From Tubulanus polymorphus (taxonomy: Eukaryota; Animalia; Nemertea): a stretch of DNA of 64,000 nucleotides. How positions within the stretch are numbered: position 1 is the stretch's first letter; every line of letters starts with the position of its first letter. Below are positions 1-44,219 of the stretch, one piece after another. The notes beneath the pieces were generated by a model. It had not been told where the DNA came from, made no database searches, and worked only from the letters and a program-made list of their open reading frames with translations. Position numbers and translations under genes: made by a program. Location of the stretch: NCBI RefSeq assembly GCF_964204645.1, contig NC_134027.1, positions 15,966,485-16,030,484 on the forward strand. Reading direction: 5' to 3'.

Positions 1-351
1 GTTCTCGGTGTGCGGCTCAAATGGCGTTGCTTCAGGACTTAAAATGCTCGATGATGACGGACTCTTAGTTAATTCGTCTAATCTAAGGAGACATTGAGTG
101 GCTTTCTGAAAGTAAGTATCAAGCCATTCCTCCGCCTTTATGATGTCAGATTCTTCTGCGAGTGACGAAACGTGACGATTATGCGCCGACTGTAAAGAAC
201 TCATACAGCCTGTTATTCGTTCCTTCAACGGCTGAATCTGCGAAGACTGTGCTGTTAAGGAATCCGCCTGATTCAGTGCTCGAGACAACCAACCCGCAAG
301 ACTGGAGGATGTTTTCCTGAGCGAACTCGACTTCGGATCCATTTCCGTCAT
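1..351 (-). CDS. 5' part of an ORF running off the window; possible BEL/Pao retrotransposon Gag N-terminus
   Basis: ATG at 351 opens 117 codons to the window edge (MTEMDPKSSSLRKTSSSLAGWLSR...AEEWLDTY...LSPEATPFEP). The family call is by resemblance only. Confidence 0.4.
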   Translation of the reverse strand, partial: MTEMDPKSSSLRKTSSSLAGWLSRALNQADSLTAQSSQIQPLKERITGCMSSLQSAHNRHVSSLAEESDIIKAEEWLDTYFQKATQCLLRLDELTKSPSSSSILSPEATPFEPHTEN

Positions 352-1633
352 AGCTAGCGATAGCAACACAGCAGATTTGTAGAAATTCAAACTATGTCGT
401 GCCTTGGCTGACAGGCGACTGGCAACGATCTAGACTAACTACGGCGAACGTTTCAAACACATTATTTCTTATGTATTCACGGTTTGCTACAAAGAATAAA
501 CAAACAACAATAATTATGCTCATTTTACATCATGTACCACAAATTATAGCATTTGAAATAATTGATACATGTATAATCATATTTAAAGACCGGCTACTCA
601 CAATTTCATGTTCACTGTGCGACATGTAGAGCTGACACTGAATACACAGATTTCTGATCAAACATTATATAAGCCAAAAGTTACTGAGCCGTTAAGGCAT
701 GATATAAGGCATTCGCCTACACAGAAATGCACAACTCATAAATCTATAATCCATATCAAAACTTGCAGAGTGTAAAAAACACAAAAGAAAGTATCAAATT
801 ACAAATCATAACAAATACAAAAACCATAGCTCCAATAAATAATTTCTTATACGACAAAACCATTTACTAATCTAATTATAAATTAAAGCTAATTTCTAAC
901 AATCCGATATATCGATAATCTCGCTATCGGAATCAGCGATGTCAATAATGGAAGGAGAGGGAGCAGGCCCCCCAGTGCTGGTGGATTGGAGAGGACAGGT
1001 GGAAACAGGGTTTGGAGGAAGTTCAATTGGAGGGTTATTTGGAGAAGGGGTGCCGGATAGTAGAAAAAAGGGTATTAAGGGAGGATAATCAGGGTCGCGG
1101 TCATAGTACGGATTGTATGAGACGTCGTTGGTAGGGTGATAGGGGTGTACTCTGTGGATCTAAGGGGCGTGAGTAATAGGGGTTTAGTTGTTCTAGATCA
1201 AAGGTCGAACGGTCGAGTTCATTAAAAACAAAATATTAAAAGTAATTTAAAACTATAATATATTTTCATAGCCGGGTGTATTTTATATTATAACTAAATA
1301 TTTATTCTAAGACATTAATAATTTAAATTTTAAAAGCATATTGCTCCGCGACCAATTGATTTATTTACAATACACAAATTCATATAATCAAATATATTCA
1401 AATAATAATAATTATTCTATTATTTAACTAAAATACACCAAAAAAAGTAACGAGTAATTAACGAGCTCTTATAGAATAGATATATAGATATATTTTAAAC
1501 ATTATTTCAATATTTATATTTGTATGAGTTAGATTTTTAAACATTAAAAGTGTTAGTAAAGTGTGATTGAAATAATTCATATATAAATCATTGAACTTCT
1601 AAAATCAATAAAAAAAAAAAAATTAGTATTAAA

Positions 1634-1997
1634 ATGGAAGCAAATAAGTACTACTGTCCAACATGTAATATCAATATAGATAAATCCTAAAAATCAAGAC
1701 ACAATAAAACTAAAACACATTTAGAGAATAAATTGAAATTAGAATATGTAGATGATACATTAGAAACTAAATTAGAAGAATTAAAGAATGAAAAAGAAAC
1801 ATACAAATGTTATACATGTAATCAATCATTCAGTGATAAAAGATATCATAAAGAACATTTAAAATCTAAAAGTCATATTGGAAATATGAATAATGATATT
1901 TTAGGTGAGGATTATTTTGATAATGACAATGATAAGAAACATAAGACAATTAGAGATGACCGAAGCATTTAAAAGTGATATTGGTTCAGCAGCTATT
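1634..1997 (+). pseudogene. Outer pPolB N-terminus (two Zn fingers), cut by element A
   Basis: MEANKYYCPTC..KSRH..KTH and CYTC..H..KSH parallel the 2082 ORF. Ends IGSAAI, matching IGPAAI in element A. Has an internal stop and a deletion. Confidence 0.8.
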
Positions 1998-2086
1998 AGT
2001 AATAGGAAATGTGTTGTTTCATACCAGAGGTCGAAGGTCGAGACACCACTCATCACCACAAGTAATTTTTTTCCCTTATAAATGGG
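1998..2086 (+). repeat. Left TIR of element A
   Basis: agtaataggaaatgtgttgtttcataccagaggtcgaaggtcgagac...taaatgg is the near-perfect reverse complement of ~26844-26936. Confidence 0.9.
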
Positions 2087-4293
2087 GGAGAATGAACACC
2101 AGCCAGAAAATAATAATGTTAATAAAAATCAATATTATTGCCAATATTGTAAAAAATACATCGATAAATCCCAAAAATCACGACATGAAAAAACTGCAAA
2201 TCATATAAAAAATGTAATAGATTTTGAAACACTAGATAATACAAATGAAAGAAAAGAACGATTAGATGATATGAATGTGGATGAAATAAAATGTGAAGTT
2301 TGTGATGAATTTATAACAAAAAGGAATTATAATAGACATCTCGAATCACAAAAACACCATCAAAATTTGAGTAATAATGTTTTAGGAAAAGATTATTTTG
2401 ATAATAAACCTCAAAAAGTAAAAAAACCAACTTCAAAAACTAAATCCATTTCAAATAAAGCTTACATGGAAAATGTTAGAAATTATATTGATTCACTAGA
2501 AATAAAAGATACAATTGAAATTTTAGAAACATTACATAGTAAAATTGGTCCTGCAGCTATTATATTTAGATTTTTTGAAGGTACAACAATAGAAGATTAT
2601 AGCAAATTTAATGAAATAATAGAAAAAATACTAGATTTGATAACAGATGTTGAATATCCAAAAATTAGTATCTCTGGGAAAGTAAGTTTTTTAAAGTCAG
2701 AAGAGAAAATGGATTATAATATTCAAACACTCTCTGAAGAAATAATTTCAAAAACGCAAATAAAAGAGAAGTTAGAAAAAATATTTAATGAATTTAAACG
2801 TCATATTGAAGAAAGATATTTTGAGGGTTCTGGTTTATCATTAAATGAAATTATATTTTTAGATTTAAATGTTTATAATACAAAAAACTTCAAAAAGTAA
2901 AACAATGTTTAAAAATGATTCAAACTTTACAACAGAAAAGGATATTAAAGCATCATCTTATATTAAATTACCATTTACAACAAAAGCAGTAATACATGTT
3001 CAAAATGAAGATAATAAATGTTTTCTATGGTCAATTATTAGTTGCTTACATCCAACAGAAGATATTACACATAGTTTTAGAATAACAAATTACCGGAAAT
3101 ATGAAACATTATATAAAATTGATCAATATCCAGTAACTATAAAAATGATTTCTAAAATAGAAAAAGTTAATAATTTAAAAATAAATGTATTCGTATTAAT
3201 GCAATTACCAAAGACAAAAGGTGAAAATATTAAAGATTATACATTGGAAGCTTTATATTTAACAGAATATTATGATGATGAAAATGCTATAGATTTGTTA
3301 TATTACAAAAAAGATGAAAATGAACATTATATGTGGTTAAAACAAATTGATTTATTCTTTAGAACAGAAAGTGATCACCATAATAAAATTTATCTATGTA
3401 GAAAATGTTTATCTAAATTTAGAACCGAGAATGCGTTACTAAAACATAAAGAATTATGTGATAATAAAGATTTTTGTAAATTAATAATGCCAACAGAAAA
3501 AGATTATAAATTGAAATTTACTAATCATAAATTTAAGAATATTGTTCCATTTGTAATTTATGGGGATTTTGAATCGTTGAATAAAGAATTAACTGATCAA
3601 GATAGAAAAGAAATATATAACAAGAAGCAATTATTAAAATCAATGGATAAAGTAAATGAATTAAATGAAGACACAATACAAGACCCACCAATTATAAACA
3701 CAATTAAAAAAGTTCATCAAAGAGCTGCTGCTTATGGAATTTATATAAAATCAAATTATCCTGAATAATATGAAAGTCAATATATCTCTTTTAGAGGTGA
3801 AGATGTAGTTAATAATTTTTGTAACAAAATAATTGAATTAGAAAGTGATTTTGCAGAATTATTAAACAAAAATAAAAGAATAGTTATGACAAAAGAAGAT
3901 GAAATTGATTTTAATTATGCAACCCATTGTTGTTATTGTGAAAAACGTTTTTATTCATTTGATAAAAAAAGTTAGAGATCATGATCATTTAAATTCAAAA
4001 TATCGTGGAGCTGCTCATGAAGATTGTAATTTACAAGCTAAAAAAGTAAATTTCGTTTCAATATTACTTCATAATTTATCCGGCTATGATACCCATCTAT
4101 TTATAAAACAATTATCGGGAAAATTGGGCGCAATTAATCAAGAAATAGAAGAATATAATGCTATGAATGGTGTGAATGTAAGAAAATATGATTTTAACTT
4201 ATTAGCTAAAACATCTGAAATTATATATCATTTCAATTTGGTTGCATTAGATTTTTAGATTCTTATAGATTTCTAGCAAGTTCATTAGATAAT
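2082..4293 (+). pseudogene. polB: Element A pPolB, 5' part (Zn fingers, terminal-protein region, exonuclease, endonuclease VII/HNH insert)
   Basis: Motifs EGSG, NEDNKCFLWS, PFVIYGDFES, RDHDHL..YRGAAH..CNL, HNLSGYD, DSYRFL. Frameshifts and stops present. HNH-type (group 2) pPolB. Confidence 0.92.
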
Positions 4294-4699
4294 AGTAAAA
4301 GGGGTATTAGGCTTTCAAATCAAAGGTTGAACGGTCGAGTGAGTAAAAAATGAAAAATATGAAAATAATAACAATTTCTACTTGAAATACTCGCGAAACT
4401 CATAAAAAATGAAAAATAATTCTCGCACACTCGAATTTTTCATTTTCTACTCGCTAGAAAAGGTGTGAGTAAAGTGTGAGTGAAATAAATTCTCGCACGC
4501 TCGAATTTATTTCACTCACACTTTACTCACACTTTTTTCTAGCGAGTAAAAATGAAAAATAAATTCTCACACGCTCGAATTTATTTTTCATTTTTTATGA
4601 GTTTCACTCCTAATTCAAATAGAAATTGTTATTATTTTCATATTTTTCATAATTTACTCACTCGCCCTTTCAACCTGAAAGCCTATTACCCCTATTACT
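4294..4699. repeat. ~405-bp self-complementary terminal unit (left)
   Basis: Starts agtaaaaggggtattaggctttc, ends gaaagcctattacccctattact. Contains three internal aattct-loop-gaattt hairpins. Confidence 0.9.
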
Positions 4700-4943
4700 C
4701 TTAAGATATTCATATATATGGATAAGATATATATGAATAACATATAAATTGATAGATTATTCAATATAAAAGTGAGTAAAAGTAACAAGTAATTAACAAG
4801 TTCTTATAGAATAGATATATAGATATATTTTAAACATATTTCAATATTTATATTTGTATGAGTTAGATTTTTAAACATAAAAAGTGACGAGTAATTAACG
4901 AGTGAAATAATTCATATTTAAAACAGTGAATATTTATATTTGA

Positions 4944-5591
4944 ATGAGTTTTAATAAAAATTTTGTTATAAAAATGAAGAAAGAAGAAGAACCCAACTTT
5001 AAAATCGAAATCAATGAAACCAATAAATCATTTTCACAGTTTAACATTAAAAATTATATTTCAGCAACAAATTTAGTGTCCGCAAGACATTATAAAATTG
5101 AAAATATTACTGTAATTAATCAAATATTATCAAATGAAACATATTTAATTACTAAACTAATTGATACTTTTGATAATGGTGTTAAAAATCCTAAAGTATT
5201 CAATACAGTTTTAAATTTTAAAGGAACTTTAGATGAAAACATAATAAATATACTTCAAACCCCTTTCAATGAAAGAAATGATGATATAATACTTTCAAAA
5301 GATTACAATGATTTGATTAACTTAAGAATTGAAAAAAGACAATTATATTATTTCAAATTTGATAATAAACAAATTATCTATAATGAAAATTCATCAAATA
5401 TTGGTATTCAATGTGAATTAGATAATGAAAAATCATTTAAAGATATTGCAGTTCAATGTAATTTAGATGATGAATTTAGAAAATTCAATCCTAATGAAAA
5501 AGTGCATTGTTATTGCGGAGGTAAATATTTAAAATCACATAAATCAAAGCATTATGAAACAATTAAACATAAAAACTGGCGTAAAGAGTAA
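4944..5591 (+). CDS. Element C TIR-encoded protein with C-terminal Zn finger
   Basis: Intact 215-aa ORF ending CYCGGKY..HKSKHYETIKH. Duplicated in the right TIR. Confidence 0.75.
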   Translation: MSFNKNFVIKMKKEEEPNFKIEINETNKSFSQFNIKNYISATNLVSARHYKIENITVINQILSNETYLITKLIDTFDNGVKNPKVFNTVLNFKGTLDENIINILQTPFNERNDDIILSKDYNDLINLRIEKRQLYYFKFDNKQIIYNENSSNIGIQCELDNEKSFKDIAVQCNLDDEFRKFNPNEKVHCYCGGKYLKSHKSKHYETIKHKNWRKE

Positions 5592-5644
5592 CAATTCTAC
5601 ATTACAATTATTGAATTGAGTTAAATGGTTTAAATATCTAATAG

Positions 5645-7270
5645 ACTGTTAAAATGATAAATTGTTTAACTGTTTGACAGTTGAAATGATAAATTGTTTG
5701 GCAGTTGAAATGGTAAATTGTTTGACAGTTGAAATGATAAATTGTTTGACAGTTGAAATGATAAATTGTTTGGCAGTTGAAATGATAAATTGTTTGACAG
5801 TTGAAATGATAAATTGTTTGACAGTTGAAATGATAAATTCTTTGATAGTTGAAATGATAAATTGTTTGACAGTTGAAATGATAAATTGTTTGACAGTTGA
5901 AATGATAAATTGTTTGGCAGTTGAAATGATAAATTGTTTGACAGTTGAAATGATAAATTGTTCGACTGTTGAAATGATAAATTGTTTGACAGTTGAAATG
6001 ATAAATTGTTTGACAGTTGAAATGATAAATTGTTTGACAGTTGAAATGATAAATTGTTTGACAGTTGAAATGATAAATTGTTTGACAGTTGAAATGATAA
6101 ATTCTTTGATAGTTGAAATGATAAATTGTTTGACAGTTGAAATGATAAATTGTTTGACAGTTGAAATGATAAATTGTTTGGCAGTTGAAATGATAAATTG
6201 TTTGACAGTTGAAATGATGAATTGTTCTACTGTTGAAATGATAAATTGTTTGACAGTTGAAATGATAAATTGTTTGACAGTTGAAATGATAAATTGTTTG
6301 ACAGTTGAAATGATAAATTGTTTGACAGTTGTAATGATAAATTGTTAGACAGTTGAAATGATAAATTGTTTGACAGTTGAAATGATAAATTGTTTGACAG
6401 TTGAAATGATAAAATTTTTACAGTTGAAATGATAAATTGTTTGACAGTTGAAATGATAAATTGTTTGGCAGTTGAAATGATAAGACACAGTTGAAATGAT
6501 AAATTGTTTGACAGTTGAAATGATAAATTGTTTGACAGTTGAAATGATAAATTCTTTGATAGTTGAAATGATAAATTGTTTGACAGTTGAAATGATAAAT
6601 TGTTTGACAGTTGAAATGATAAATTGTTTGGCAGTTGAAATGATAAATTGTTTGACAGTTGAAATGATAAATTGTTTGACAGTTGAAATGATAAATTCTT
6701 TGATAGTTGAAATGATAAATTGTTTGACAGTTGAAATGTGAATTGTTTGACAGTTGAAATGATAAATTGTTTGGCAGTTGAAATGATAAATTGTTTGACA
6801 GTTGAAATGATAAATTGTTCGACTGTTGAAATGATAAATTGTTTGACAGTTGAAATGATAAATTGTTTGACAGTTGAAATGATAAATTGTTTGACAGTTG
6901 AAATGATAAATTGTTTGACAGTTGAAATGATAAATTGTTAGACAGTTGAAATGATAAATTGTTTGACCGTTGAAATGATAAATTGTTTGACAGTTGAAAT
7001 GATAAATTTTTTACAGTTGAAATGATAAATTGTTTGACAGTTGAAATGATAAATTGTTTGGCAGTTGAAATGATAAGACAGTTGAAATGATAAATTGTTT
7101 GACAGTTGAAATGATAAATTGTTTAACAGTTAAAATGATAAATTGTTTGACAGTTGAAATGATAAATTGTTTGACAGTTGAAATGATAAATTGTTCGATT
7201 GTTGAAATGATAAATTGTTTGACAGTTGAAATGTTAAATTGTTTGACAGTTAAAATGATAAATTGTCTAG
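5645..7270. repeat. 24-bp tandem array (ttgacagttgaaatgataaattgt), about 67 copies
   Basis: Directly visible. Variant units recur at higher order. Confidence 0.97.
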
Positions 7271-7392
7271 CTGTAAATTTAATTGTTATTTGATTTAATC
7301 ATTTAAAAGTTTAATATTTTAAAAATGATTACAAATATTTAATTAAAAACTAGCAAATATTTTATAAACTGTTTAATTTTTCTCTTAAATAA

Positions 7393-7611
7393 ATGGATGG
7401 TTTCATCCCAACTGGGAAAAGTGATTTGAAACATTATTTTGTAGCAGGCGGATTAATATTGGCTGCGCTTTTCTTTTATTATGAAAATATCAGTAAGGAT
7501 TTGATGAATGAAAATAATAAATTGAGTAAAAAATTAAAGAAGTTAAATGGAAACAATCACAGAAATAAAAAGAATAAAAAAGTTAATTTAGAAAATGATT
7601 TAGAGGATTAA
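7393..7611 (+). CDS. Element C small membrane protein
   Basis: TAAATG start, hydrophobic YFVAGGLILAALFFYY segment, basic tail. Confidence 0.55.
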   Translation: MDGFIPTGKSDLKHYFVAGGLILAALFFYYENISKDLMNENNKLSKKLKKLNGNNHRNKKNKKVNLENDLED

Positions 7612-7649
7612 AACAGCATCTTTTAATTTCATATATTTTGACTATAAAA

Positions 7650-7952
7650 ATGAGTGAAAATATATTAAACTTATTACATCTAATATATAAAAATCAACAG
7701 AATATTAAATCAATTATTATGCTTACAGGTTTATTTTCTTTTTCAATTTATAGTATAAAACAGTTGTTAGAATTCTATGATAGTTGTAAAATTAGATATA
7801 CAGAATTGAAAGAAAATATAAATTATCTATCAGATCGAATAAATAATATTAAATGCTGTGAAATATGTAATAAAAGATATAAAAATTTAAAGAGTTTAAA
7901 ATCTCATAAATATATTCATGAATTAGATGATAAACTGTATAATTCAAATTGA
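7650..7952 (+). CDS. Element C protein with hydrophobic segment and C2H2 Zn finger
   Basis: CEICNKRYKNLKSLKSHKYIH; ATG at 7650. Confidence 0.6.
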   Translation: MSENILNLLHLIYKNQQNIKSIIMLTGLFSFSIYSIKQLLEFYDSCKIRYTELKENINYLSDRINNIKCCEICNKRYKNLKSLKSHKYIHELDDKLYNSN

Positions 7953-8199
7953 GAATAAGACTGTTAAATTGGTTGAAAATATAAAAATAGATAATATTAT
8001 AACTATTTCTATATTTAGATTAATAATTTATATTTATAATTATTATAAAACTAATTTATATATGTATGTACTAGACGTACGAGTAAGAAAGTAAGATTCT
8101 TACCAAGAAAGTAAGAAAGTAAGAATCTTGCCAAGAAAGTAAGATTCTTGGATTCTCTTTACGCCAGTTTTAATGTTATTATGTTTCATAATGCTTTGA

Positions 8200-8796
8200 T
8201 TAATGTGATTTTAAATATTTACCTCCGCAATAACAATGCACTTTTTCATTAGGATTGAATTTTCTAAATTCATCATCTAAATTACATTGAACTGCAATAT
8301 CTTTAAATGACTTTTCATTATCTAATTCACATTGAATACCAATATTTGATGAATTTTCATTATAGATAATTTGTTTATTATCAAAATTGAAATAATATAA
8401 TTGTCTTTTTTCAATTCTTAAGTTAATCAAATCATTGTAATCTTTTGAAAGTATTATATCATCATTTCTTTCATTGAAAGGGGTTTGAAGTATATTTATT
8501 ATGTTTTCATCTAAAGTTCCTTTAAAATTTAAAACTGTATTGAATACTTTAGGATTTTTAACACCATTATCAAAAGTATCAATTAGTTTAGTAATTAAAT
8601 ATGTTTCATTTGATAATATTTGATTAATTACAGTAATATTTTCAATTTTATAATGTCTTGCGGACACTAAATTTGTTGCTGAAATATAATTTTTAATGTT
8701 AAACTGTGAAAATGATTTATTGGTTTCATTGATTTCGATTTTAAAGTTGGGTTCTTCTTTCTTCATTTTTATAACAAAATTTTTATTAAAACTCAT
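8200..8796 (-). pseudogene. Right-TIR copy of the 4944 ORF, premature stop in the Zn finger
   Basis: Near-identical protein; stop after LKSH. Confidence 0.8.
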
Positions 8797-9040
8797 TCAA
8801 ATATAAATATTCACTGTTTTAAATATGAATTATTTCACTCGTTAATTACTCGTTACTTTTTATGTTTAAAAATCTAACTCATACAAATATAAATATTGAA
8901 ATATGTTTAAAATATATCTATATATCTATTCTATAAGAGCTTGTTAATTACTTGTTACTTTTACTCACTTTTATATTGAATAATCTATCAATTTATAAGT
9001 TATTCATATATATTTTATCCATATATATGAACATTTTAAG

Positions 9041-9444
9041 AGTAATAGGGGTAATAGGCTTTCAGGTTAGAGGTTGAAAGGGCGAGTGAGTAAATTATGA
9101 AAAATATGAAAATAATAACAATTTCTATTTGAATTAGGAGTGAAACTCATAAGAATGAAAAATAAATTCGAGCGTGTGAGAATTTATTTTCATTTTTACT
9201 CGCTAGAAAAAAGTGTGAGTAAAGTGTGAGTGAAATAAATTCGAGCGTGTGAGAATTTATTTCACTCACACTTTTTCTAGCGAGTAGAAAATGAAAAATA
9301 AATTCGAGTGTGCGAGAATTATTTTTCATTTTTTATGAGTTTCGCGAGTAATTCAAGTAGAAATTGTTATTATTTTCATATTTTTCATTTTTTACTCACT
9401 CCACCGTTCGACCTTTGATTTGAAAGCCTATTACCCCTATTACT
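9041..9444. repeat. ~404-bp self-complementary terminal unit (right)
   Basis: agtaataggggtaataggctttc...gaaagcctattacccctattact; inverted copy of 4294-4699. Confidence 0.9.
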
Positions 9445-9450
9445 GATAAT

Positions 9451-12251
9451 TTAGCAAAAAGTTTAGTTGATAATGATTTTGTTATAACTCGATATTATTG
9501 TCCAAATGAACAAGATTTTAAATTATTGAGATATAAAGGTGCAATTCCTTATTCAATTTATAAAACACACAATGATTTTAATGTAACAGAATTATTAAAA
9601 GATCAATTTTATGATCAATTAAAAGAGGAGTATGTGAAAGACGAAGTGTTTAATAGAACATTAAATATTTGGAACCATTTTAAGATGAAAAATCATGGTG
9701 AATTAGTTGATTTATATTTAAAATCAGATGTTATGATATTGGCTGACATATTTGAAAAATTTAGAGAAGTTAATTTGAATCATTTTAATGTTGATCCTTG
9801 TTATTGCTACTCTAGTCCTGGTTTAACCTGGCAATGTGGTTTAAAATATACAAATGTAGAATTAGATTTATTAAAAGAACCAGACATGGTTTTATTATTT
9901 GAAAAATCAATTAGAGGTGGAATTAGTGGTGTTATGGGAGATAGATATTTTGAGGCAAATGATGAATATAAATTATTATATATTGACGCCAATAATTTAT
10001 ATGGTTGGGCAATGATGCAACCTCAACCATATAAAATTTTTATATTAACAGAAGTTGAAAATGATGATAAAACTGATTGGGAAAGCGCAATTGCGAGTTT
10101 AAAAGATGAAGCACCAATTGGTTATTTCTTTGTAGTTGATTTAGAATATCCTGAAAATATAAAGTTTAAAACAAGAAACTTACCTTATTGCCCAGAACAT
10201 TTAACTGTAGATGATAGTTATTTAAGTGAATACCAGAAGAAAATAAAACCGAAAGATCATGTTTTTACAGAAAAATTAATACTTCCTCAAAATAATAAAT
10301 ACAATTATATCGTTCATTATAGAATGTTAAAATTTTATCTTAAACAAGGAATGAAATTAAAGAAAGTACATAGATATATTGAATTTAATCAATCGATGTG
10401 GTTAGAAAAATATATAGATTTCAATACTCAACAGAGAACCATATCAAAAACAAGTTTTGAAAAAGATTTCCTCAAATTAATGAATAATAGTTTTTATGGT
10501 AAAACATGTGAAAATATTAGAAATAGAAATGATATTGAATTAGTAAATAATTCTGAACGATTAAGACATTTACAATCAAGTCCTAAACATTTAGGAAATA
10601 AAAGATTTGAAGATAATTTAACAGTTGTTAAATTAAAAAGAACGTCAATGAAATTTAATAAACCTATATTCATTGGTTCAACTGTTTTAGAAGTATCAAA
10701 ATTATTAATGTATGATATTTATTATAATGTTTTACAACCACTTTTTGGGGAAAAGCATATTGAAATATTATATTTTGATTCTGTAACAGCTGACACCCCA
10801 ATATTATTAAAATGTAATGATAAAATATTGATAAGAAGAATTTCAGAAATAATTCCAAAACAAAATGAATGTTATATTTCATATGGTGAAAAAGAATTAA
10901 TACAAATAAATGAATTAATGGATGTTTGGACAAGAAATGGATGGAAAAAATTAAAGAATATTATTCTTTGAAACATGAAACAAATAAGAAAATCTGTAGA
11001 GTTAGAACTAAATTAGGGTTTGTAGATGTTACAGAAGATCATAGTTTAATTAAACGAAATGGCTATGAAATAAAACCAACTGATATAAAAATTGGAGATG
11101 AATTATTACATAAAAGATTTTTCCAAAGAATGAATCATATGTCATTCGACGAAATTATTGATAATATTTATAATATAGAACCTGAAACATTAGAAGAAAA
11201 AGAATATTTTATCAAAGAATTTTTCATGGGTGATGGTTCAGCAGGTGTGTATAATTATGTTTGGGGTAATAAATATTGTTGGTATTTATGCAATCAAGAT
11301 TTGAAATTATTAGAAAGAATTAAGAAATTCAGTGAAGAAGTTTATTCTCATAAAACATTTAAAATCATAGATGTTATGAAATCATCAGCAGTTTATAGAA
11401 TACTTGTAAATAATCCTAAAGATTTTGCTATAAGATATAATGATGAATTCTATATTCATGCAATAGTGAAAAGTAATACTTCAACAAAAGAAAAGATAGT
11501 ACCAGATTATGTATTAAATGCAAAAAATAATTTAAGAAAGTGGTTCTTCATTGGATTCTATGCCGCAGATGGCACTAAAAAATTTATAAAGGAAAAAAAG
11601 ATAACCTTTGCACAAAAGGAAAAGTTGCTATATCAGGATTAAATATATTATGCAGTTCATTAGGATTTAATATGAATATAGAATTAATTAAATCTAAACC
11701 AAATTGTTTTAATTTAAGGCATGTAGAAGAAGAATTAACAGAAGAAGTTAAAGATTTATTTGAAATATATAACCCATCAGATTATGTTTATGATTTATCA
11801 ACTGAAGATGGTACATTTAACTGTGGATTTCCATTAATTGCAAAAAATACTGACAGTTACATACTAAAAATAAAGACAAATGACATAACAAAAGACTTAA
11901 AAACATTAAAACATCATTTTGATTTTAGCAATTATCCCAAATATCATGAACTATTTAGCAATGATAATAAAAAGATTCCTGGTAAATTTAAAGATGAATT
12001 AGGGGGTGATGAAATGATTGAATTTGTTGGGATAAGAAGTAAAATGTATAGTTATAGAACAAAAGATCATGAAGCTAAAAAGTTAAAAGGAATAACAAAA
12101 CATGTGGTTGATAAACATATAGAATTTCAAGATTATATAAAGTGTTTATATAACTCAATTGTAATGAAACATAAAATGAATTGTTTAAGATCAGAAAATC
12201 ACGAGATGTATATTAATGAAGTTGAATAAAACATTACCTTATGGCCATTAA
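9451..12251 (+). pseudogene. polB: Element A pPolB, 3' part (polymerase domain, intein-containing)
   Basis: Motifs LYLKSDV, SIRGGIS, YIDANNLYG, KLMNNSFYGK, YFD..TDS, GKFKDE, KMYSY, KLKGI. A deletion removes the DDKR region before TLPYGH. Confidence 0.95.
10780..11848 (+). mobile_element. Intein with LAGLIDADG homing endonuclease in pPolB motif C
   Basis: YFD|SVTADTPILL (block A), VDVTEDHSLI (B), FFMGDG (C), FFIGFYAADG (E), YVYDLSTEDGTF (F), LIAKN|TDS (G). Two frameshifts; ~355 aa when repaired. Absent from the outer pPolB. Confidence 0.95.
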
Positions 12252-18739: not shown

Positions 18740-21299
18740 ATGAGTGGGAGTTATATAAGTCCTTCTAAGATTTCTAGAATATCTAATGCTATTAAAGCAG
18801 AAAGATCACATCATATAATTACTCATAATCCTTCAAATATTAATCCCGATGAAACTTTATATGTTAGAATTCCTAGATTAACACAAAATACTTTTTATGT
18901 TCCAAATAGTATTTATTTATCAGCCGATATAAAAGTAACCGGTAATAATAATAATTATGTTGTCGATAATGTTGGAAGATATTTGATTAAAAAATTAACT
19001 ATAAAGACTGGTCCCGAAACAGTTTTCTCATCAGATGATTATAATTTATTTGTGCATTATAAAGATTTATGGTTAACTAAAGAAAATAGAAATAATATGA
19101 TATTTCAAGGTATCCAATCAGAAAACCAAAATAAATTAAGATCTGAAGCCAATAATGCAGTAGTAACTAATGACGTAGATAATTTGATTAAAAAGATTTA
19201 TGGAAGCAAATATAAAATTCCATTAGATTTTGAATTGATAAATAATAATGCACCTTTATATAAATATGTAATTCAAGAAGATATTATATTTGAGATAACA
19301 TTTGCTCCTGTAAATGAAATTGTATTATCTAGCGTTGTTGCAAAAGGTAGAAAGTTTCTTTTGTCCAATGTCGTATAGCGCCGCCGCGGTCGAAAATCGA
19401 ACTAATCTGTCAAGTCGATAATTTTCTAAGTGAGAAGACGCCGCGTTCAGTTCGCAGTACACTGTACGTACAGTTTTTCGATACACTGCTGTTTCAACAA
19501 ATTTGTTTTGAAGTTGAAGTTCACAGCGCGCTATTCAGTTTTCAGAAGTAGAGGGCTAAAATAACATCATTCGTAAGATCTCAGATTGAATATTTTCATC
19601 AGATTCAGAGCTCAGTTCATTGTATAAAATGTGTTATTTCATGTATTAGACAGTTACTTCTATTACTCTGACAGGAGTTTTTATGTCATAATTTTTTTTT
19701 TTACCTCATGTGTAACTCAATAATAGCAGAGTTGATAGTTTAATTATCAATTATTAATTTATAAATAAATTAGTATTATTAATTTGATTAGTGGATTGAT
19801 TATTATTAAGAGGTATGACATTAAAAACATATATATAATGCAAAGATATGGATGTTATATATAATGCAAAGATATGGATGTTATAATGATAATGTATTTC
19901 TACTCGCATAGAAATGAGACTAAAGTTTTCCTGTTTGGATATTCTAAAAGCTTATAAGTCCTTTGCCAAGGATATGAATGGTTTGTGATGATATTATGTT
20001 TACTAAATTCATTTGTTGGTTGAACGATTTCAATTAATATCGCAATATTTAGCATTCGTGATATAATTAATATGATAAGAGATATGGCCATTTGTCTATT
20101 GTTCATGTTAGCAAAAGATTGCATTTGATATAGAAGGCTTTAAAATGTTTTGATGTATGGTTGAGATTTTCAAAATAAATGTTATGCTTACATGAGATAA
20201 TTGGAACTAGATGTTTTATTTCATTTTTATCAAGTATCGATGGATGAGAAGTCTTTCGACGATGTGCAGTTAGCCCATTAGAGTTTGCCTTAAAATACTT
20301 TACTCTCAGTCTAAACTGAATTTAATTCATACCGCCGTACAGTACCATAAAATTCACACTAAATCTTTAGCGTCATTGGAATAGGACGTCCCCTGTTTCA
20401 CATCCGGCAGGTGTGGTGCCGGTGGGTAAGTTTAATAAGGTACACCAAATCTATTAAAACGATCGCTATTTTAAAATCAAAACATCCCGAAGAAATTGGG
20501 GATTCGAACCTATCGGTTATATACTGGTACTCGGCGTCTTTCCGCTTAACAAAACATCGTCAATAACATTAGTTCTTATTATTGCTAAGAAGCGGCGCTA
20601 CTGGTACTGTCGATCGGACATTAGAAACTTTCTACCTTTTGCAGCGTTGTTAAAGATATGGGTTATAAATTATCGAATATATGTTTAGAATATAAGACAG
20701 TAACTAATGAAAATATTGCTAACACAATTCAAACTCAATACAATCAAGGATTTTCATTATTATATGATTATATTGATAAATCTAAAACTGTAACTATTAA
20801 TGCAAATGATGAAATAATCAATGATAATATTAACTTCCCAAGAAGATCTATTAAAGGTATATTAATATTTTTTACCATTGCAACATATTCTAATGGCGCA
20901 ATAAAGGTAGATAATTATTATAATCCTGAAATAACAAAAGTAGAAATAACTATCGAAGGAATAGCAAATAAAATATTTTGTCAAGGAATGAGAATGATAG
21001 ATCAATGGCCAGAAATTAGAAAACATTTTATGAATGAAAAAGTAAAATCATTTGAAAATTGTAATATTAATCAAATTGATTATTATGCCGGTAATAAATA
21101 TGCATTATGGTTAGATTTTAGAACAACAGAGGATAATTCATTACATGGTTCTGGGAAAAAACTACAGAACAATAAAGATGGAATACAATTATTCATGAAA
21201 ATGAAAAAAGGAAGCTTAAATTTTAAAATGCACATTTATATTATATCTGACGCACAATTAAATATTGTAAATTCACAATTAGATAGTATTCAATATTAG
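18740..21299 (+). pseudogene. Major capsid protein, interrupted by a 1.3-kb transposon
   Basis: 18740-19339 joins 20652-21299 in frame (IVLSSVV|KDMGYKLSNICLEY), ~415 aa. Motifs NPSNINP..LYVRIP, PRRSIKGILIFF, YALWLDFR. Size and position fit a Polinton MCP. Confidence 0.8.
19340..20642. mobile_element. Non-autonomous TIR transposon, 9-bp TSD (Mutator-like), copy 1
   Basis: 20-bp TIR GCAAAAGGTAGAAAGTTTCT; TSD AGCGTTGTT; inverted second copy at 39660-40958. Confidence 0.92.
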
Positions 21300-23636: not shown

Positions 23637-25240
23637 CATTTTCATTTCTATAATCATAATATTCACTTTCAATTAGTTCTGGATAATCAGATTTTATATA
23701 TAACCCGAAAGCTGCAGCTGATTGATGAATCTTTTTAATTGTATTTGTTTTTAGTGGTTCATCTGAAAAATCATTTTCATTAGAATTTAATTTCTTTCTT
23801 TTATAATATATTTCTTTTCTATCTTGATCAGTTAGTTCCTTATTTAATGATTCAAAATCTCCATATATTACAAATGGTACTTTATTTTTGTAATCATATT
23901 TTATGAATTCTAATATTTTATCCTTTTCATTTGGTAAAACTAATTTACAATAATCATGATTATCACATAATTGTTTATGATTTAATAATGCACTTTCAGT
24001 TCTGAATCTATGTAAACATTTTCTACATAGATATATTTTATTATCAAAATCATTTTCTGATTTAAAAAATAAATCAATTCTTTTAATCCACATATAATGA
24101 TTCTCATAATATAATATATCTATAACATCGTTTGAATCATAATCTTTTGATAGATATAAAGGTTCTAATGTATAATGTTTTATATTGTTACCTTTTGTTT
24201 TTGGTAATTTGAGTAAATCAAACACATTTATCTTTATATTATTATCTCTTTCTATTTTTGGGATGTTTTTAATTCTAACAGGATACTTATCTATCTTATA
24301 ATTATTTTCAAATGGTTTATAATGAGTTAATCTACAAATATTATCAGTTGCAGGATGTAAGCAACTAATTATAGCCCATAGAAAACATTTATCATCAAAA
24401 TTTTGTACATTTATTACAGCATTAGTTTTAAATGGTAGTTTAATATAACTCGATGCTTCAATATCTGGTTCTTTATAATATGATACATTATTTTCATCAA
24501 TTGGTTTTGATTTAGTTAACTTATTATATTTTGTGTTATAAACATGTAAAGTCATAAATATAATTTCATCAAATATTAAACCTGATCCTTCAAAATATTT
24601 CTCTTCTATTTTAGTTTTTACTTCATTATAACATTTATCTAATTTATCATCTATATGTTGTTTAGATATAATATGTTGTGAATGAGAATTTATATTATAT
24701 ATTGGTTTATCTTCAGATTTTATAAACTTTACTTTAGAAGATATACTAATTTTAGGGTATTCAACATCTGTAATTATTTTTATAATATTTTTCATATTTT
24801 CTAAATGTTTTTTATTTTCTTCTGTTTTTCCTTTATGAAATTTAAACTCAATAGCAGTAATTGGAAATGTGTTGTTTCATACCAGAGGTCGAAGGTCGAG
24901 ACACCCACCACTCATCACCACAAGTAATTTTTTTTTCTAATAAATGGGAGATAGAAAAGCATTCTTAGCAACAATAAATATCAGAATAAAACCAGCAAAC
25001 AAAAAAAAATTTGAAATAAAAAAGTTAATTGATGTTGCAAAAGAAATTTAACATAAAATATTGAAATTAGAAAAGATAAAAACTAAATATGGAGAGAAAG
25101 TATCAGCGAATTTAAGCTACTGTAATGTTAGTACATCGCGAGAATTTAAAGTATTTTAACCTGATAAATGGGTTTCATTGAGTACAGAGGAATTAAAAGA
25201 TTTAGAAGGATTTAAAATAATCTATCATGGAAAAAATGAA
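23637..25240 (-). repeat. Inverted duplicate of 26552-28111 (A right end plus outer pPolB fragment)
   Basis: The 23569-24795(-) ORF matches the 27000 and 27523 ORFs. Includes the A TIR and the GCTATT junction. Confidence 0.92.
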
Positions 25241-25273
25241 GACGGTCATCATGATTTAGAAATTGTTGATTGA
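24944..25273 (+). pseudogene. SSB-like gene of element A (duplicate; the in-place copy runs leftward from ~26849)
   Basis: TKYGEKV..FKVF*PDKW..LSTEELKDL..KNEDGHHD aligns with 30517-30870. Confidence 0.65.
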
Positions 25274-26942: not shown

Positions 26943-29900
26943 GAGTTTAAATTTCATAAAGGAAAAACATTAGAAGAAAATAAAAAACATTTAGAAAATA
27001 TGAAAAATATTATAAAAATAATTACAGATGTTGAATACCCTAAAATTAGTATATCTTCTAAAGTAAAGTTTATAAAATCTGAAGATAAACCAATATATAA
27101 TATAAATTCTCATTCACAACATATTATATCTAAACAACATATAGATGATAAATTAGATAAATGTTATAATGAAGTAAAAACTAAAATAGAAGAGAAATAT
27201 TTTGAAGGATCAGGTTTAATATTTGATGAAATAATATTTATGACTTTACATGTTTATAACACAAAATATAATAAGTTAACTAAATCAAAACCAATTGATG
27301 AAAATAATGTATCATATTATAAAGAACCAGATATTGAAGCATCGAGTTATATTAAACTACCATTTAAAACTAATGCTGTAATAAATGTACAAAATTTTGA
27401 TGATAAATGTTTTCTATGGGCTATAATTAGTTGCTTACATCCTGCAACTCTTAAGGTATAAGTATACTGTTAGAATTAAAAACATCCCAAAAATAGAAAG
27501 AGATAATAACATAAAGATAAATGTGTTTGATTTACTCAAATTACCAAAAACAAAAGGTAACAATATAAAACATTATACATTAGAACCTTTACATCTATCA
27601 AAAGATTATGATTCAAACGATGTTATAGATATATTATATTATGAGAATCATTATATGTGGATTAAAAGAATTGATTTATTTTTTAAATCAGAAAATGATT
27701 TTGATAATAAAATATATCTATGTAGAAAATGTTTACATAGATTCAGAACTGAAAGTGCATTATTAAATCATAAACAATTATGTGATAATCATGATTATTG
27801 TAAATTAGTTTTACCAAATGAAAAGGATGAAATATTAGAATTCATAAAATATGATTACGAAAATAAAGTACCATTTGTAATATATGGAGATTTTGAATCA
27901 TTAAATAAGGAACTAACTGATCAAGATAGAAAAGAAATATATTATAAAAGAAAGAAATTAAATTCTAATGAAAATGATTTTTCAGATGAACCACTAAAAA
28001 CAAATACACTTAAAAAGATTCATCAATCAGCTGCAGCTTTCGGGTTATATATAAAATCTGATTATCCAGAACTAATTGAAAGTGAATATTATGATTATAG
28101 AAATGAAAATGTTATCAATCATTTTTGTGACTTATTAATTGAATATGAAATAAGATTTAGTAAATTATTGAATACAAATATAGAAATTATAATGACAGAA
28201 GAAGATAAAGAAGAATTTGTGTTTGCAGGTAAATGTTATTATTGTGAAAAGATATTTAATTATAAAGATAAAAAGTAAGAGACCATGATCATTTGAATGG
28301 AAAGTTTAGAGGTGCTGCGCATGAGAATTGTAACTTACAAGCTAAGAAAATTAACTTTGTGCCAGTTATATTTCATAATCTATCAGGATATGATGCACAT
28401 TTATTTATCAAACAGTTATGTCATAAAATAGAAGAAATTAATAATGAAATAGAAAGATTAAATTCAAATAGATCAAAAGATAAAATATCAACTTATAAAT
28501 TTAAGATGTTAGCTAGAACATCTGAGAATTATATATCATTCCAATTTGGTTGCCTAAGATTTATAGATTCATATAGATTTTTAAATAGTTCATTAGATAA
28601 CTTATCAAAATCATTAGTTGATGATGAATTAAAAATATTAAAACAACACTATCCAAATAATGATGATTTCCAATTAATGAGATATAAAGGCGCAATTCCA
28701 TATTCTTTCTATAAAAATCATAATGATTTTAACATAACTGAATTATTGAAAGAACAATTCTACGATGAATTAAAAAATGAATAAGTTAAAGATGAAGTCT
28801 ATAATAGAACATTGAATATTTGGAATCATTTCAAAATAGAAAATCATGGACAATTATTAGATTTATATTTAAAATCAGATGTATTATTATTATCGGCTAT
28901 ATTTGAAAGGCTTAGAGATGTAAACCTAAAATATTTTAATATTGATCCATGTCATTGTTATTCATCACCAGGTTTAACATGGGATTGTGGATTAAAATTT
29001 ACAGATATAAAAATGGATTTGTTAACAAATATTTGTTAACAATTATTATTATTTAAAAAATCTATAAGAGGAGGAGTTTCAGGTGTATTAGGGGATAGAT
29101 ATTTCAATGTAAATGATAACCCTGGATATAAGTTATCATAGATAACATATATATAGATGCAAATAATTTGTATGATTGGGCAATGATGGAACCACAACCT
29201 TATGGAGTATTTGAAATAAGTGAAGTTTTACAACATGAAAATAATGACAAATTTGATTGGAAGAAAAGGATTCTAGATATTGCAGATGATTCAGATACTG
29301 GTTACTTTTTTGTTGTAGATTTAGAATATCCTGAACATATTAAATTTGAATCTAGAAATCTAGCATACTGCCCCGAACATAAAACTGTAACACATGAAGA
29401 ATTATCAAATTATCAAAAAAGAATTAAACCCGAAAATCATATTCATACAGAAAAGTTAATGGTAACTCAAGAAGATAAATATAATTATGTAGTACATTAT
29501 AGAATGTTGAAGTTTTATATGAATCAAGGAATGATCCTAAAAAAAGTGCATAGATATATTTCATTTAGCCAATCTAAGTGGTTAGAAAAATATATAGATT
29601 TTAACACCAAACAGAGAACTGAAGTTAAAACTGATTTCGAGAAAGATTTCTTCAAGTTAATGAACAATGCATTCTATGGTAAGACTTGTGAATATATTAG
29701 AAATAGAAATTACATTGAGTTAGTTAGTAATGGCAAAAGGATAAGGCATTTACAAACGTACCCTAAATTTATAGGTAACAGAATATTTGATGAAAATTTA
29801 GCCGCAGTTAAAATGAGAAGAACTTCTATGAAATTTAATAAACCAATTTATGTTGGAGCATCAGTTTTAGAAATATCAAAGTTATTAATGTATGAATTCT

Positions 29901-30487
29901 ATTATAATGTATTACAATCTCATTTTGGAGAAAAACATATAGAAATCTTATATTTTGATACCGACAGTTACATATTAAAGATAAAAACTAATAACATAAC
30001 AGATGATTTTAAAACATTAAAACATCATTTTGATTTTAGTAACTATCCTAAAGATCATGAATTGTTTAGCAATGATAATAAAAAAGTTCCTGGTAAATTC
30101 AAAGATGAATTAGGTGGTGAAGAAATGATAGAGTTCATAGGTATTAGATCTAAAATGTATAGTTATAAAACCATAACTCATGAATCAAAGAAATTGAAAG
30201 GAATTACTAAAAGTGTAGTAGAAAAGAATATTCATTTCAAAGATTACATCAATTGTATATTCAATGAAGTTAGAAAACATAAGATGAAATGTTTAAGATC
30301 AGAAGATCATGAAATGTTTATTGAAGAGATAGAGAAGATAAGTCTAAACCCATTTGATGATAAAAGATATATTTTAGATGATGGAATTCATACAGTTGCT
30401 TATGGTTGTAATTTAGATGAATACTTAAAATTTAAAAGAGAAGAAACAAAAGAGAACGAGATAATGAAAAGAATTCTAACGTGTTAA
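26943..30487 (+). pseudogene. polB: Outer pPolB main body (intein-free)
   Basis: Full motif set including YIDANNLY, KLMNNAFYGK, YFDTDS, DDKR. Several stops and frameshifts. Confidence 0.95.
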
Positions 30488-30516: not shown

Positions 30517-30870
30517 ATGGAGAGTAAACAAGCACACAGTGAGAACAACAAAATATTTCTAGATAGAATAAAAGATACTTCAAATGTCAAATCAGTAGAT
30601 TATAAATTTAAGAAGTTAAAAGAATTAATAATCCATAAGCGATATCTAATTACAAATATTGATACAGTTACTAACAAATATGGAGATAAATTAGTTATAC
30701 ACTTAGAATATGAAGGATTAAAAGGAAATACATATAAATTTAGAACATATTTACCAGATAGATTTCATAGATTATCAAGTGAAGATTTAGAAGAATTATG
30801 TTCTGGAGATTTCTATTTCGTATACAAATGTAAGAATGAAAAGGGGCACCATGCAATAGATTTCGAATAA
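30517..30870 (+). CDS. Putative ssDNA-binding (OB-fold-like) protein
   Basis: NKYGDKLVIHLE..YLPDRF pattern; intact; adjacent to pPolB. Function is inferred. Confidence 0.55.
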   Translation: MESKQAHSENNKIFLDRIKDTSNVKSVDYKFKKLKELIIHKRYLITNIDTVTNKYGDKLVIHLEYEGLKGNTYKFRTYLPDRFHRLSSEDLEELCSGDFYFVYKCKNEKGHHAIDFE

Positions 30871-33878: not shown

Positions 33879-35256
33879 CATTTTGAATAGTCTAAAGTAC
33901 ACAAATAATGATTTAGAGTTGGGTCTTAGGTTTATGGGTCTTAGGTTTAGTGACACCTATATATAATATACTAAACCTAAGACCCATAAACCTAAGACCC
34001 CCAAATATCTCGTCTCTGATAAATGAACCAAATTTAAATAGGCCATCGATGTATCATTTTAACTAATATCTATATATTAGAACCATTTTGAATAGTCTAA
34101 CGTACACAAATAATGATTTAGAGTCGGGTCTTAGGTTTATGGGTCTTAGGTTTAGTGACACCTATATATAATATACTAAACCTAAGACCCATACACCTAA
34201 GACCCCCAAATATCTCGTCTCTGATAAATGAACTAAATTTTAATAGGCCATCGATGGATCATTTTAACTAATATCTATATATTAGAACCATTTCGAATAG
34301 TCTAAAGTACACAAATAATAACTTAGAGTCGGGTCTTAGGTTTATGGGTCTTAGGTTTAGTGACACCTATATATAATATACTAAACCTAAGACCTATAAA
34401 CCTAAGACCCTCAAATACGTCTCTGATAAATAAACCAAATTTAAATAGGCCATCGATGGATCATTAACTAATATCTATATATTAGAACCATTTTGAATAG
34501 TCTAAATTACACAAATAATGATTTAGAGTCGGGTCTTAGGTTTATGGGTCTTAGGTTTAGTGACACCTATATATAATATACTAAACCTAAGACCCATAAA
34601 CCTAAGACCCCCAAATATCTCGTCTCTGATAAATGAACCAAATTTTAATAGGCCATCGATGGATCATTTTAACTAATATCTATATATTAGAACCATTTCG
34701 AATAGTCTAAAGTACACAAATAATAACTTAGAGTCGGGTCTTAGGTTTAGTGACACCTATATATAATATACTAAACCTAAGACCTATAAACCTAAGACCC
34801 TCAAATACGTCTCTGATAAATAAACCAAATTTAAATAGGCCATCGATGGATCATTAACTAATATCTATATATTAGAACCATTTTGAATAGTCTTAAGTAC
34901 ACAAATAATGATTTAGAGTCGGGTCTTAGGTTTATGGGTCTTAGGTTTAGTGACACCTATATATAATATACTAAACCTAAGACCTATAAACCTAAGACCC
35001 CCAAATATCTCGTCTCTGATAAATGAACCAAATTTAAATGGGCCATCGATGGATCATTTTAACTGATATCTATATATTAGAACCATTTTGAATAGTCTAA
35101 AGTACACAAATAATGATTTAGAGTCGGGTCTTAGGTTTATGGGTCTTAGGTTTAGTATATTATATATAGGTGTCACTAAACCTAAGACCCCCTAAACATA
35201 AGACCTAACGGGTCTTAGGTCTTAGGTTTAGGGGGTCTTAGGTTTAGTGACACCCC
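33879..35256. repeat. 205-bp tandem repeat with internal palindrome, ~6.5 copies
   Basis: Unit starts at 33879, 34084 and onward; gggtcttaggttta / taaacctaagaccc arms. Confidence 0.92.
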
Positions 35257-37452
35257 GATGTTGACGGTTTAAAGTTGCTGAGCAGAGTGATTAGTTTGTG
35301 AACTTACAACGCGTTTTTATTGTCAGAAAATGACTTGTCCGAACACGATTTACGGTTTCACTTGTTGTTGTGAAATATTTTTAGCCCAAACTCGTTCATG
35401 ATTTCACAATAGCCGTTAAAAGACGCCATCTTGGAATTATCCCCCACTTCCCCGCACGCACGCACGCACGCACACTCACACACGCTCCGCGCGCGCACGT
35501 GTATAAGGAATACGCAATATTGAGTTCGATTTAACCGATCGCTCACTCACTCGCTTTCACACACTCGCATGAACGAACCGTGACTTACGGATTTACGGAA
35601 ATGTCTGGCGAATTTGTTACCCCTGTGAAGCTGGCTTCCGGTTCCCGGTTCCTTATTCGGCTCCCGATTCAAAATGCTTTTGAACCGGGAGCCGAATCGG
35701 GAACCGGGAACCGGGAGCCGGCTACTGGTTCAGCTCCCGATTCAAAATGCTGTTGAACCGGGAGCCGAATCGGGAACCGGGAACCGGGAGCCGGCTACTG
35801 GTTCAGCTCCCGATTCAAAATGCTTTTGAACCGGGAGCCGAACCGGGAACCGGGAGCCGGCTACTGGTTCAGCTCCCGATTCAAAATGCTTTTGAACCGG
35901 GAGCCGAATCGGGAACCGGGAACCGGGAGCCGGCTACTGGTTCAGCTCCCGATTCAAAATGTGAAGCTGGCTACTTATTCGCCAGGTGGCGCTGGTGTAC
36001 ACTGTGCTGTAGTCCAGACATTTTACGTAACTATGTCTACTCTGCTGATAAACAAACTCGACCTCGACCTTGACAAGAAATCGCCAGGTGTGGCGCGAGC
36101 CAATCCAGACGTCTAAACACGATTGCGTATGCGACCGCGAGACTTGCGGTCGCTATACGTCAGTAAGCTGCGTCTATTAATAACATAACTTGGTTTAAGA
36201 ACGTGCGTATTGCTCGGTCGTTTTTCTCGTCACCAATCGACTTCTTCATATGTTATTCGCCTCTTTAATCATTTAATCAATAAACCATCGATTGTTCCCG
36301 AGCTATAGGGTATTTATTAGTCAGCACTGAAAGGGTTAACAAGAGAGAAAGTTTCTAACGAAAGTTATCGAATCCCCAAGACAACAATATCTGCAAGCCC
36401 ATGAAATTGTAAGATATAAAATAAACAGACGCTTTCTGCCTACCGTATAAATCACCCTTCATGCAGGGTAAATCCATTGTCGAAGATGAAAAAACAATCA
36501 CTTCAATATTCTATTAAACTTAATATTTTCCTATCTATCAAATTCCATAGAAAAAAGACCGGGAACCGGGAGCCGGAACCGATTCGGCTCCCGATTCAAA
36601 ATCATTTTGAATCGGGAGCCGAATCGGGAACCGGTAGCCGGCTCCCGGTTCAAAACCATTTTGAATCGGGAGCCGAACCTGGAACCGGGAACCGGTAGCC
36701 GGCTCCCGATTCAAAATGTGAAGCTGGCTACTTATTCGATTCGACTCTATTGCGGACAGGTAAATGTTATGATTGCGTAACTATGGTGTCTGCTCTCAAG
36801 TGCTAACCGCAACCTTGACCACCAGTCGAGACGAGGCCAATCGAGACGTCTAAACACATCGCGCAACCAGGTGTGCTGACCGCGAGCGTTGCCCGGAGCG
36901 TTGACCTGCACTTTGACTCAGCAACTCATAATATCTTCTTTCATTCATTGAAGGTTTTGTGAAATAAGCGAAATCCTCGGAAATTTCTTTCCTTTTAAAA
37001 ACTGCCAGCTGCTGCTACTACGTCATCATTCCGATATGTATGAAGCTACGAGATAGATTGTACGCGTGACTTGTGATATGTAGTTTTTCCCACAGCCAAA
37101 TGGGTTAATGCCCTGGGCCCGGCTTAGGTGATAATTCGAATTGAAAGTGCTTTATTCTAGTTAGTGAATTCGATGATTAAATCTCTTTCACAAACGCTAA
37201 TTAGGGAAGAATTTACTAATTAGAAGTATCTACAAATAGAAGTCTAATACCTGGACACAACAAATCACCAGGTGATGGCACGAGCCAATTCAGACGTCTA
37301 AACACGATTGCGTAAACATGTCTGCTGATAAGAGCTAAAGTTAACCTCTACCTCAACCACCATAACAATGTGGAAGCCAATGGAGACGTCTTAACAAACA
37401 CCACGTGCGTGCCGATGTCTGCAACTCTAGTAAATATTTGATCAGAACAGAA

Positions 37453-43941: not shown

Positions 43942-44219
43942 CATGGCCGTCGGAACAGGGGCGGCAGGGGCGGCCAAAGCCGCCCCACTTTTTTGCTTAA
44001 CAAAATATTTTTCAAAAGCACGCTGAACCGCGTAGCAGCTCGTCGTTCTCTGTACTAGGTGGTTGGCTCACGGCTTCTCGTGCTACTGTGAGTGAGACCG
44101 TGAAATGGCCCCAAAATGCATCTCCGGCGATTGAATTTTCAAAATTTTTCTAGGGGAGGGCCCCTAAACCCCCTTCAGAAATAAGCCTCGCCACTTAAAA
44201 ATTCCTTCCGACGGCTCTG
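43942..44219. mobile_element. Small MITE
   Basis: CATGGCCGTCGGAA...TTCCGACGGCTCTG ends; CTATT on both flanks. Confidence 0.55.

Follow-up and report, generated by a model that had tools for sequence, protein, structure and literature searches.

We analyzed a 64,000-nt window of the Tubulanus polymorphus contig NC_134027.1, which harbors two Polintons, hereafter A and B, and a mini-Polinton element lodged within a gene of Polinton A. All coordinates below are positions in this window. The element (4294–9444, 5151 bp) begins with AGT and ends with ACT, and the 6-mer GATAAT flanks it on both sides (4288–4293 and 9445–9450). Its AGT-ended terminal inverted repeats (TIRs) and its 6-bp target-site duplication are those of a Polinton, and 6-bp duplications are described as characteristic of Mavericks (PMC8097293). 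No open reading frame (ORF) for a polymerase, integrase, capsid, ATPase or protease was found within 4294–9444 by ORF and profile searches, nor was any remnant of Polinton core genes detected inside the element by DNA alignment and profile search. The element is most likely a non-autonomous derivative built on the ends of the Polinton A family, and it carries orphan cargo.

The two flanks of the element are halves of one gene that is uninterrupted in Polinton B (3154–4292 aligned with 27490–28600, and 9445–10779 with 28596–29959). We call it a putative protein-primed polymerase, based on motifs that we take to be those of such enzymes and on the rve integrase (E 8.3e-11) and A32 ATPase (E 4.7e-12) genes that a profile search placed downstream in Polinton A. 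The polymerase pieces had no match in Pfam, PHROG, NCBIfam or PDB, and a single-sequence fold of the B piece was unusable (predicted local distance difference test, pLDDT, 35.7). A search for the ATPase in viral contigs returned a single weak match of 39 residues. We noted that the A polymerase gene is also broken on either side of the insertion. Next, the site was inspected in sequencing reads. Ten read runs were available under one species label, and four contained part of the stretch; four runs were aligned to 1–5640 and two to 7290–9750, and a tandem array in the interior of the element lies outside the read alignment. Run X5, of which 12% was read, and run X1 come from different studies. 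An uninterrupted polymerase gene with a single GATAAT was present at 9445 in 192 raw X5 reads and three X1 contigs, and the empty site was also recovered at 4293 in one X2 contig and one X3 contig, which proves the insertion and its 6-bp duplication. The original prediction, made from sequence alone, had described AGT...ACT ends, a 6-bp duplication and 1.29-kb TIRs, had placed the insertion inside a Polinton polymerase gene, and had seen no polymerase, integrase, capsid or ATPase in the element; each of these descriptions was borne out.

The two arms align over 1306 columns at 96.3% identity, and their 1279 aligned bases contain 21 mismatches, along with six gaps. At its outer end, each arm opens with a 406-bp palindrome, 82% self-complementary, with an AGT end at either side; the left unit thus presents the AGT end at 4294 and a second, opposite-facing one at 4699. 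This 406-bp unit is predicted to fold as one hairpin (–145.6 kcal/mol, z –26), and none of 100 shuffled sequences was equally stable. The terminal 24-mer of the element had no match in metagenome and viral contigs, and an Rfam search gave no match. Reads with many different flanks were found at the ends (989 at 4699, and 851 plus 181 at 9444–9445, agreement 0.34–0.35).

Both arms contain ORF1, and the two copies point inward. The claim that both TIRs contain the same gene therefore stands for the presence of ORF1 in each arm, whereas the right copy is not intact: it carries stop codons at 8202, 8181, 8178 and 8172. The four stops arise from six substitutions, oddly clustered in a 31-base stretch of the zinc-finger motif, while two positions differ across the remaining 600 bases of the ORF. 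The first stop was missing in 234 of 238 X5 reads, and an X1 contig of single-copy depth spans the stop region with two differences. The four stops look private to this copy of the element. An ORF of at least 198 aa did not arise by chance in any of 2000 single-base shuffles of 4700–5640. Among 1.84 billion representatives, 14 unnamed proteins share a zinc-finger-like motif with residues 164–213 of ORF1 (best E 5.9e-8), and three of the 14 are GIY-YIG proteins; the remainder of ORF1 had no match among the same representatives. Likewise, no ORF1 homologue was found among 403 candidates or in viral or metagenome contigs, the best Atlas value was 0.89 and under threshold (with nothing for residues 11–150), and a single-sequence fold was unusable (pLDDT 35.7). 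A likeness of ORF1 to a 117-aa ORF of Polinton B (30517), first noted by eye, was rejected (hhalign probability 0.6%).

To gauge selection, we turned to the variants seen in reads, taking the 80 best-supported of ~1,290 rows over both read alignments. Six of the 11 listed ORF1 variants are synonymous, against an expected fraction of 0.205 (p 0.013), and eight of the 11 fall at the third codon position (p 0.006). ORF1 looks to be under constraint. Moreover, the listed indels are multiples of three in three of three coding cases versus none of seven non-coding ones (p 0.008). We gave this result little weight, since a triplet repeat accounts for the position of two of the indels, the count excludes a compensating pair (8178/8181), and it covers listed rows, with 11 further rows outside it.

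Between the arms lie a 24-bp array of 67 units and two small ORFs, ORF2 (72 aa) and ORF3 (100 aa); a 24-bp array and two further small ORFs were part of the original prediction. No copy of the array occurs elsewhere in the window. A long open frame in the array was rejected as a gene: the unit is free of stops, which explains the frame, and short units break it. Among 2000 shuffles of 7270–8154, three produced an ORF of 100 aa and 35 an ORF of 72 aa; the three ORFs are thus longer than chance would give in single-base shuffles. ORF2 matched nothing in the collections searched, ORF3 gave a sub-threshold match to zf-C2H2_6 (E 0.0025) and no homologue there, and an exact look-up of four translations matched none. 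The earlier observation that the ORFs have no close counterpart in A or B was upheld by tblastn (best E 0.089) and by phmmer (best E 0.026 among 903 segments, not significant).

Upon comparison with Polinton A, we found that the element shares DNA with it at two places. The tip matches the left end of A at 78% identity over 78 columns. Further in, 4778–4930 matches A 1443–1595 (153 bp, 89%, E 1e-50), within a longer alignment that reaches the start codon, such that the ATG of ORF1 at 4974 falls within one base of the first ATG of A at 1634. ORF1 thus occupies the slot of A's first gene, and at the start codon the A-like DNA changes sharply to unrelated sequence. Reads tied the two together as well: 879 X5 reads connect A 1195–1200 with the terminal motif of the element, others connect element 4725 to A 1584 (186 reads) and 4773 to A 1488 (141 reads), and reads exit the right arm into A-like sequence at 9399 (654 reads) and 8855 (351 reads), the match to A being judged by eye in these last two cases. 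The reads confirm that this arrangement is a family trait. Like a non-autonomous derivative, the element thus has ends that also occur in a Polinton family of its own genome. A bacterial promoter scan was at chance level, and the bacterial model does not apply here. We also noted that the end and first-gene region of A (1129–2068) had an X5 depth of ~800–1500, versus ~300 for the A polymerase. A-type ends thus far outnumber A interiors, and other end-only derivatives probably exist.

Copy number was estimated from reads at least 90% alike, and most aligned reads were 90–99% alike. X5 depth was 7–16 in bins of the host flank (~10.5 by a cross-check with X1), 108 over the core (7373–7787), and 300 over both ORF1 and the polymerase, which corresponds to ~7–15 copies of the core and 19–43 copies each of ORF1 and the polymerase. 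In X1, one contig had a depth of 1779 versus 40–65. By read depth the element is therefore multicopy, and the single copy that the original prediction named as its own refutation was not observed. The ratio of ORF1 to core was 2.8 in X5 and 1.7 in X1 (the latter from summed contig depth, a weak measure), where 2 is expected if ORF1 occurs only in paired arms.

Collectively, these results make it probable that the element is a multicopy, enzyme-less element on family-A ends and upstream region, likely moved in trans by the polymerase and integrase of A, with an orphan zinc-finger gene likely expressed from a borrowed promoter in each arm. An A-type left end would first have taken up ORF1 at the position of its first gene. 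Copy-back from this end to the opposite one would then have produced the 1.29-kb gene-containing arms, and snap-back at the tip the 406-bp palindrome, both events taking place during strand-displacement replication. Copy-back and snap-back, like copy-back defective genomes and panhandle end repair, are known from adenoviruses and linear plasmids. The element resembles copy-back genomes in that one end is copied onto the other to give long inverted arms and in its need for helper replication proteins. Such genomes are transient or episomal and consist of helper sequence only, whereas the element is integrated, multicopy and carries foreign genes. Replication might start at the shared AGT ends by the protein-primed polymerase of the helper, and the helper integrase would insert the copy into sites that are for the most part not selected, duplicating 6 bp there, the present copy having landed by chance in a polymerase gene of the A family. 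ORF1 may encode a DNA-binding protein that acts on the ends or promoter of the element or of its helper, its open frame being maintained by selection on the element.

Several points weigh against this reading. With an ORF1-to-core ratio of 2.8 in X5, some ORF1 copies could lie outside such elements, and depth over 7788–8202 was only ~59. That the element is multicopy is drawn from depth: another complete copy bearing a duplication of its own was not seen in the reads and contigs, and no listed contig spans 1–5640 or 7290–9750; nor can the many-flank reads at the ends be assigned to the element family, because the tip is common to A. Polinton A, as present in the window, is broken and has a tip that matches the element at only 78%; hence the helper would be a relative seen in reads rather than this copy. 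The selection test on ORF1 is a small sample, confined to variants among 80 of ~1,290 rows, and the function proposed for ORF1 is drawn from a single short motif. ORF2 and ORF3 gave no selection signal (three of seven listed variants synonymous, p 0.17).

We next considered whether the element could have arisen by ordinary internal deletion from a full-length Polinton subfamily, itself unseen, that already had ORF1 in its TIR and the array, ORF2 and ORF3 in its interior. Genes inside polinton TIRs have been reported (10.1101/2025.02.07.637071), the ends and upstream region of the element are Polinton DNA, A and B likewise contain small ORFs of the zinc-finger and hydrophobic kinds, and the selection on ORF1 could stem from life in a full element. 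ORF1 also has the same X5 depth as the polymerase (~300 each), more than twice that of the core. However, the ORFs of the element are without counterpart in A or B, no core-gene remnant survives inside it, the X1 ratio was 1.7, and among the listed rows no strong loose end or joint ties ORF1 or the core to other sequence. We regard this deletion as unlikely. Since the genes are not pieces of A or B, a plain deletion of those two does not account for the element. The original prediction of a helper-dependent parasite rather than a simple deletion derivative was therefore sustained in part: the element has no enzymes, is multicopy, shares its ends with a helper and carries genes that are not from A or B, and helper dependence is better grounded now that the ends in common with family A make the helper identifiable. 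Its independence did not hold up, as its end and upstream region are family-A DNA.

A less likely prospect is an independent satellite lineage that gained its helper ends through recombination and that would insert preferentially into Polintons and interfere with them. The orphan gene set, the constraint on ORF1, the family diversity of 5–10% in reads, the insertion in a polymerase gene, and the switch from A-like to unrelated DNA at the start codon would all fit. By contrast, the element has no replication gene, and no relative outside its own species was found in any collection searched. The 192 empty-site reads come near a hand estimate of ~200 if all polymerase copies (depth 300) were empty here, so there is no sign of a preferred target site. 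The same window Polintons carry other insertions, and nesting may thus reflect a transposon-rich region. A preference for Polinton targets, which had been suggested for testing, gained no support: one site was seen, and nearly all X5 polymerase copies are empty there. We consider this lineage quite improbable. A composite in which two 406-bp Polinton miniature inverted-repeat transposable elements flank and mobilise unrelated DNA would explain the AGT ends on either side of each end unit, but is very hard to credit, as the inverted repeat extends 890 bp past the unit to take in A-derived upstream DNA and ORF1, and the depth at the unit center (265, a value lowered by deletions in the unit) is not above that of ORF1 (~300), so that free units are not in excess.

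A bolder reading, which we put forward only as a doubtful speculation, is a true Polinton satellite: a separately evolving parasite with its own zinc-finger gene under the first promoter of its helper, replication origins doubled as hairpins at either end, and an ORF1 product that would divert or dampen helper replication and packaging. Such a satellite would act as defective-interfering genomes or phage satellites do. An orphan gene that is truly constrained within the element would mean that Polintons are themselves host to parasites with genes, a tier beneath the virus-like element. If it is a plain derivative, the element would be an ordinary addition to a repeat library.

Helper-dependent non-autonomous Polintons with Polinton ends and 6-bp duplications were reportedly described by Kapitonov and Jurka in 2006; we know of no constrained orphan genes or palindromic end units among their elements. 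Autonomous Polintons/Mavericks, as described in PMC8097293, PMC6431247 and PMC3014272, share with the element AGT...ACT ends, long TIRs and a 6-bp duplication, but they measure 15–25 kb versus 5 kb and encode the polymerase, integrase, ATPase, protease and capsid that it lacks. Its ends read AGTAA, versus the (AG)3 or (AGT)2 given for vertebrate Polintons, and its TIRs open with the 406-bp palindrome. A preprint on Lepidoptera already describes polintons that are mobile without polB, as well as polintons whose TIRs contain genes (10.1101/2025.02.07.637071). The element is like these in being mobile without its own polymerase and in having TIR-duplicated genes. As far as the preprint describes them, the lepidopteran polintons keep hexon, adenain and packaging ATPase together with retroelement cargo, whereas the element has no core gene and carries orphan ORFs. 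Transpovirons resemble it in spanning a few kb, with terminal inverted repeats, no virion genes and a zinc-binding protein, according to PMC5499653 and PMC11161782. All transpovirons are stated to encode a Tlr1-type helicase-polymerase (PMC11161782), and they are linear episomes and giant-virus parasites; the element is integrated and Polinton-tied. Its longest ORF is 215 aa with no helicase match, no gene for a Tlr1-type polymerase–SF1 helicase being present, and the transpoviron-like label of the original prediction was therefore dropped. A search of the literature, which extended neither to most subscription journals nor to Repbase, found no paper, among those listed, on a Polinton derivative that lacks enzymes and has orphan genes or hairpins as end units. 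As of 2016, Polinton copying and insertion were described as lacking experimental demonstration (PMC5499653). If the element moves with no more than a short tip and an upstream region in common with its helper, these would delimit the cis sequences needed by the polymerase and integrase.

Features of the mini-Polinton element and of the Polinton A gene that it interrupts
Feature	Position	Strand	Evidence
Target-site duplication, left copy, 6 bp	4288..4293		Sequence; empty site in reads/contigs
Target-site duplication, right copy, 6 bp	9445..9450		Sequence; empty site in reads/contigs
Left TIR, 1295 bp	4294..5588	+	96.3% to right arm
Right TIR, 1290 bp	8155..9444	-	Alignment to left arm
Left palindromic end unit, 406 bp	4294..4699		Self-alignment and folding
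Right palindromic end unit	9041..9444		Alignment; length variants in reads, skips of 63-200 bp
Tip common with Polinton A left end (1172-1246)	4294..4369	+	78%, E 8e-8; reads
Upstream region common with Polinton A (1401-1648), putative promoter	4735..4987	+	DNA alignment; promoter function inferred
ORF1, 215 aa (205 aa if started at ATG 4974); N-terminal part orphan, zinc-finger-like motif at the C terminus	4944..5591	+	
Tandem array, 24-bp period, 67 units, 38 identical to the commonest	5671..7266		Repeat search
ORF2, 72 aa, orphan; one hydrophobic stretch (by eye), basic tail	7393..7611	+	
ORF3, 100 aa; C2H2-type zinc finger at residues 69-90, under Pfam cut-off	7650..7952	+	
Second ORF1 copy, stop-broken (198-aa ORF 8796-8200)	8155..8796	-	
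Left part of host Polinton A, with its end, zinc-finger ORFs and the 5' polymerase part (already broken)	1172..4293	+	ORFs, alignment
Host Polinton A, 3' polymerase part	9445..12229	+	ORFs, alignment, motifs

Other features of the window were noted in passing. At 10771–11850, the YxDTD-type motif of the A polymerase carries an insertion that resembles a homing-endonuclease intein (Pfam Intein_splicing E 0.004 and LAGLIDADG_3 E 0.0013, both below cut-off); in Polinton B, the motif is uninterrupted at 29951. The 5' region of the B polymerase is duplicated in inverted orientation at 96% identity (23637–25240/26552–28111, with a 1.3-kb spacer), possibly a copy-back structure. The 117-aa ORF that follows the B polymerase (30517–30870) has a decayed paralogue near 25058–25264 and three unnamed homologues at ~63%. 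Where Polinton B ends abruptly, at 33879–35205, lies a tandem array of palindromic units with a 205-bp period. Two inverted 1.3-kb copies of a further element (19340–20642 and 39660–40958, 96% identical) have TIRs and different 9-bp duplications, the first lying between A ORFs 18740 and 20658; it is presumably a non-autonomous Mutator-type element. An 11-kb element at 35619–46640 has long GC-rich inverted ends built of 73-bp palindromic repeats. Lastly, a 2.1-kb array of telomere-like 7–8-bp units (55584–57695) adjoins an ORF that encodes a CxC5 (KDZ transposase-associated) domain.

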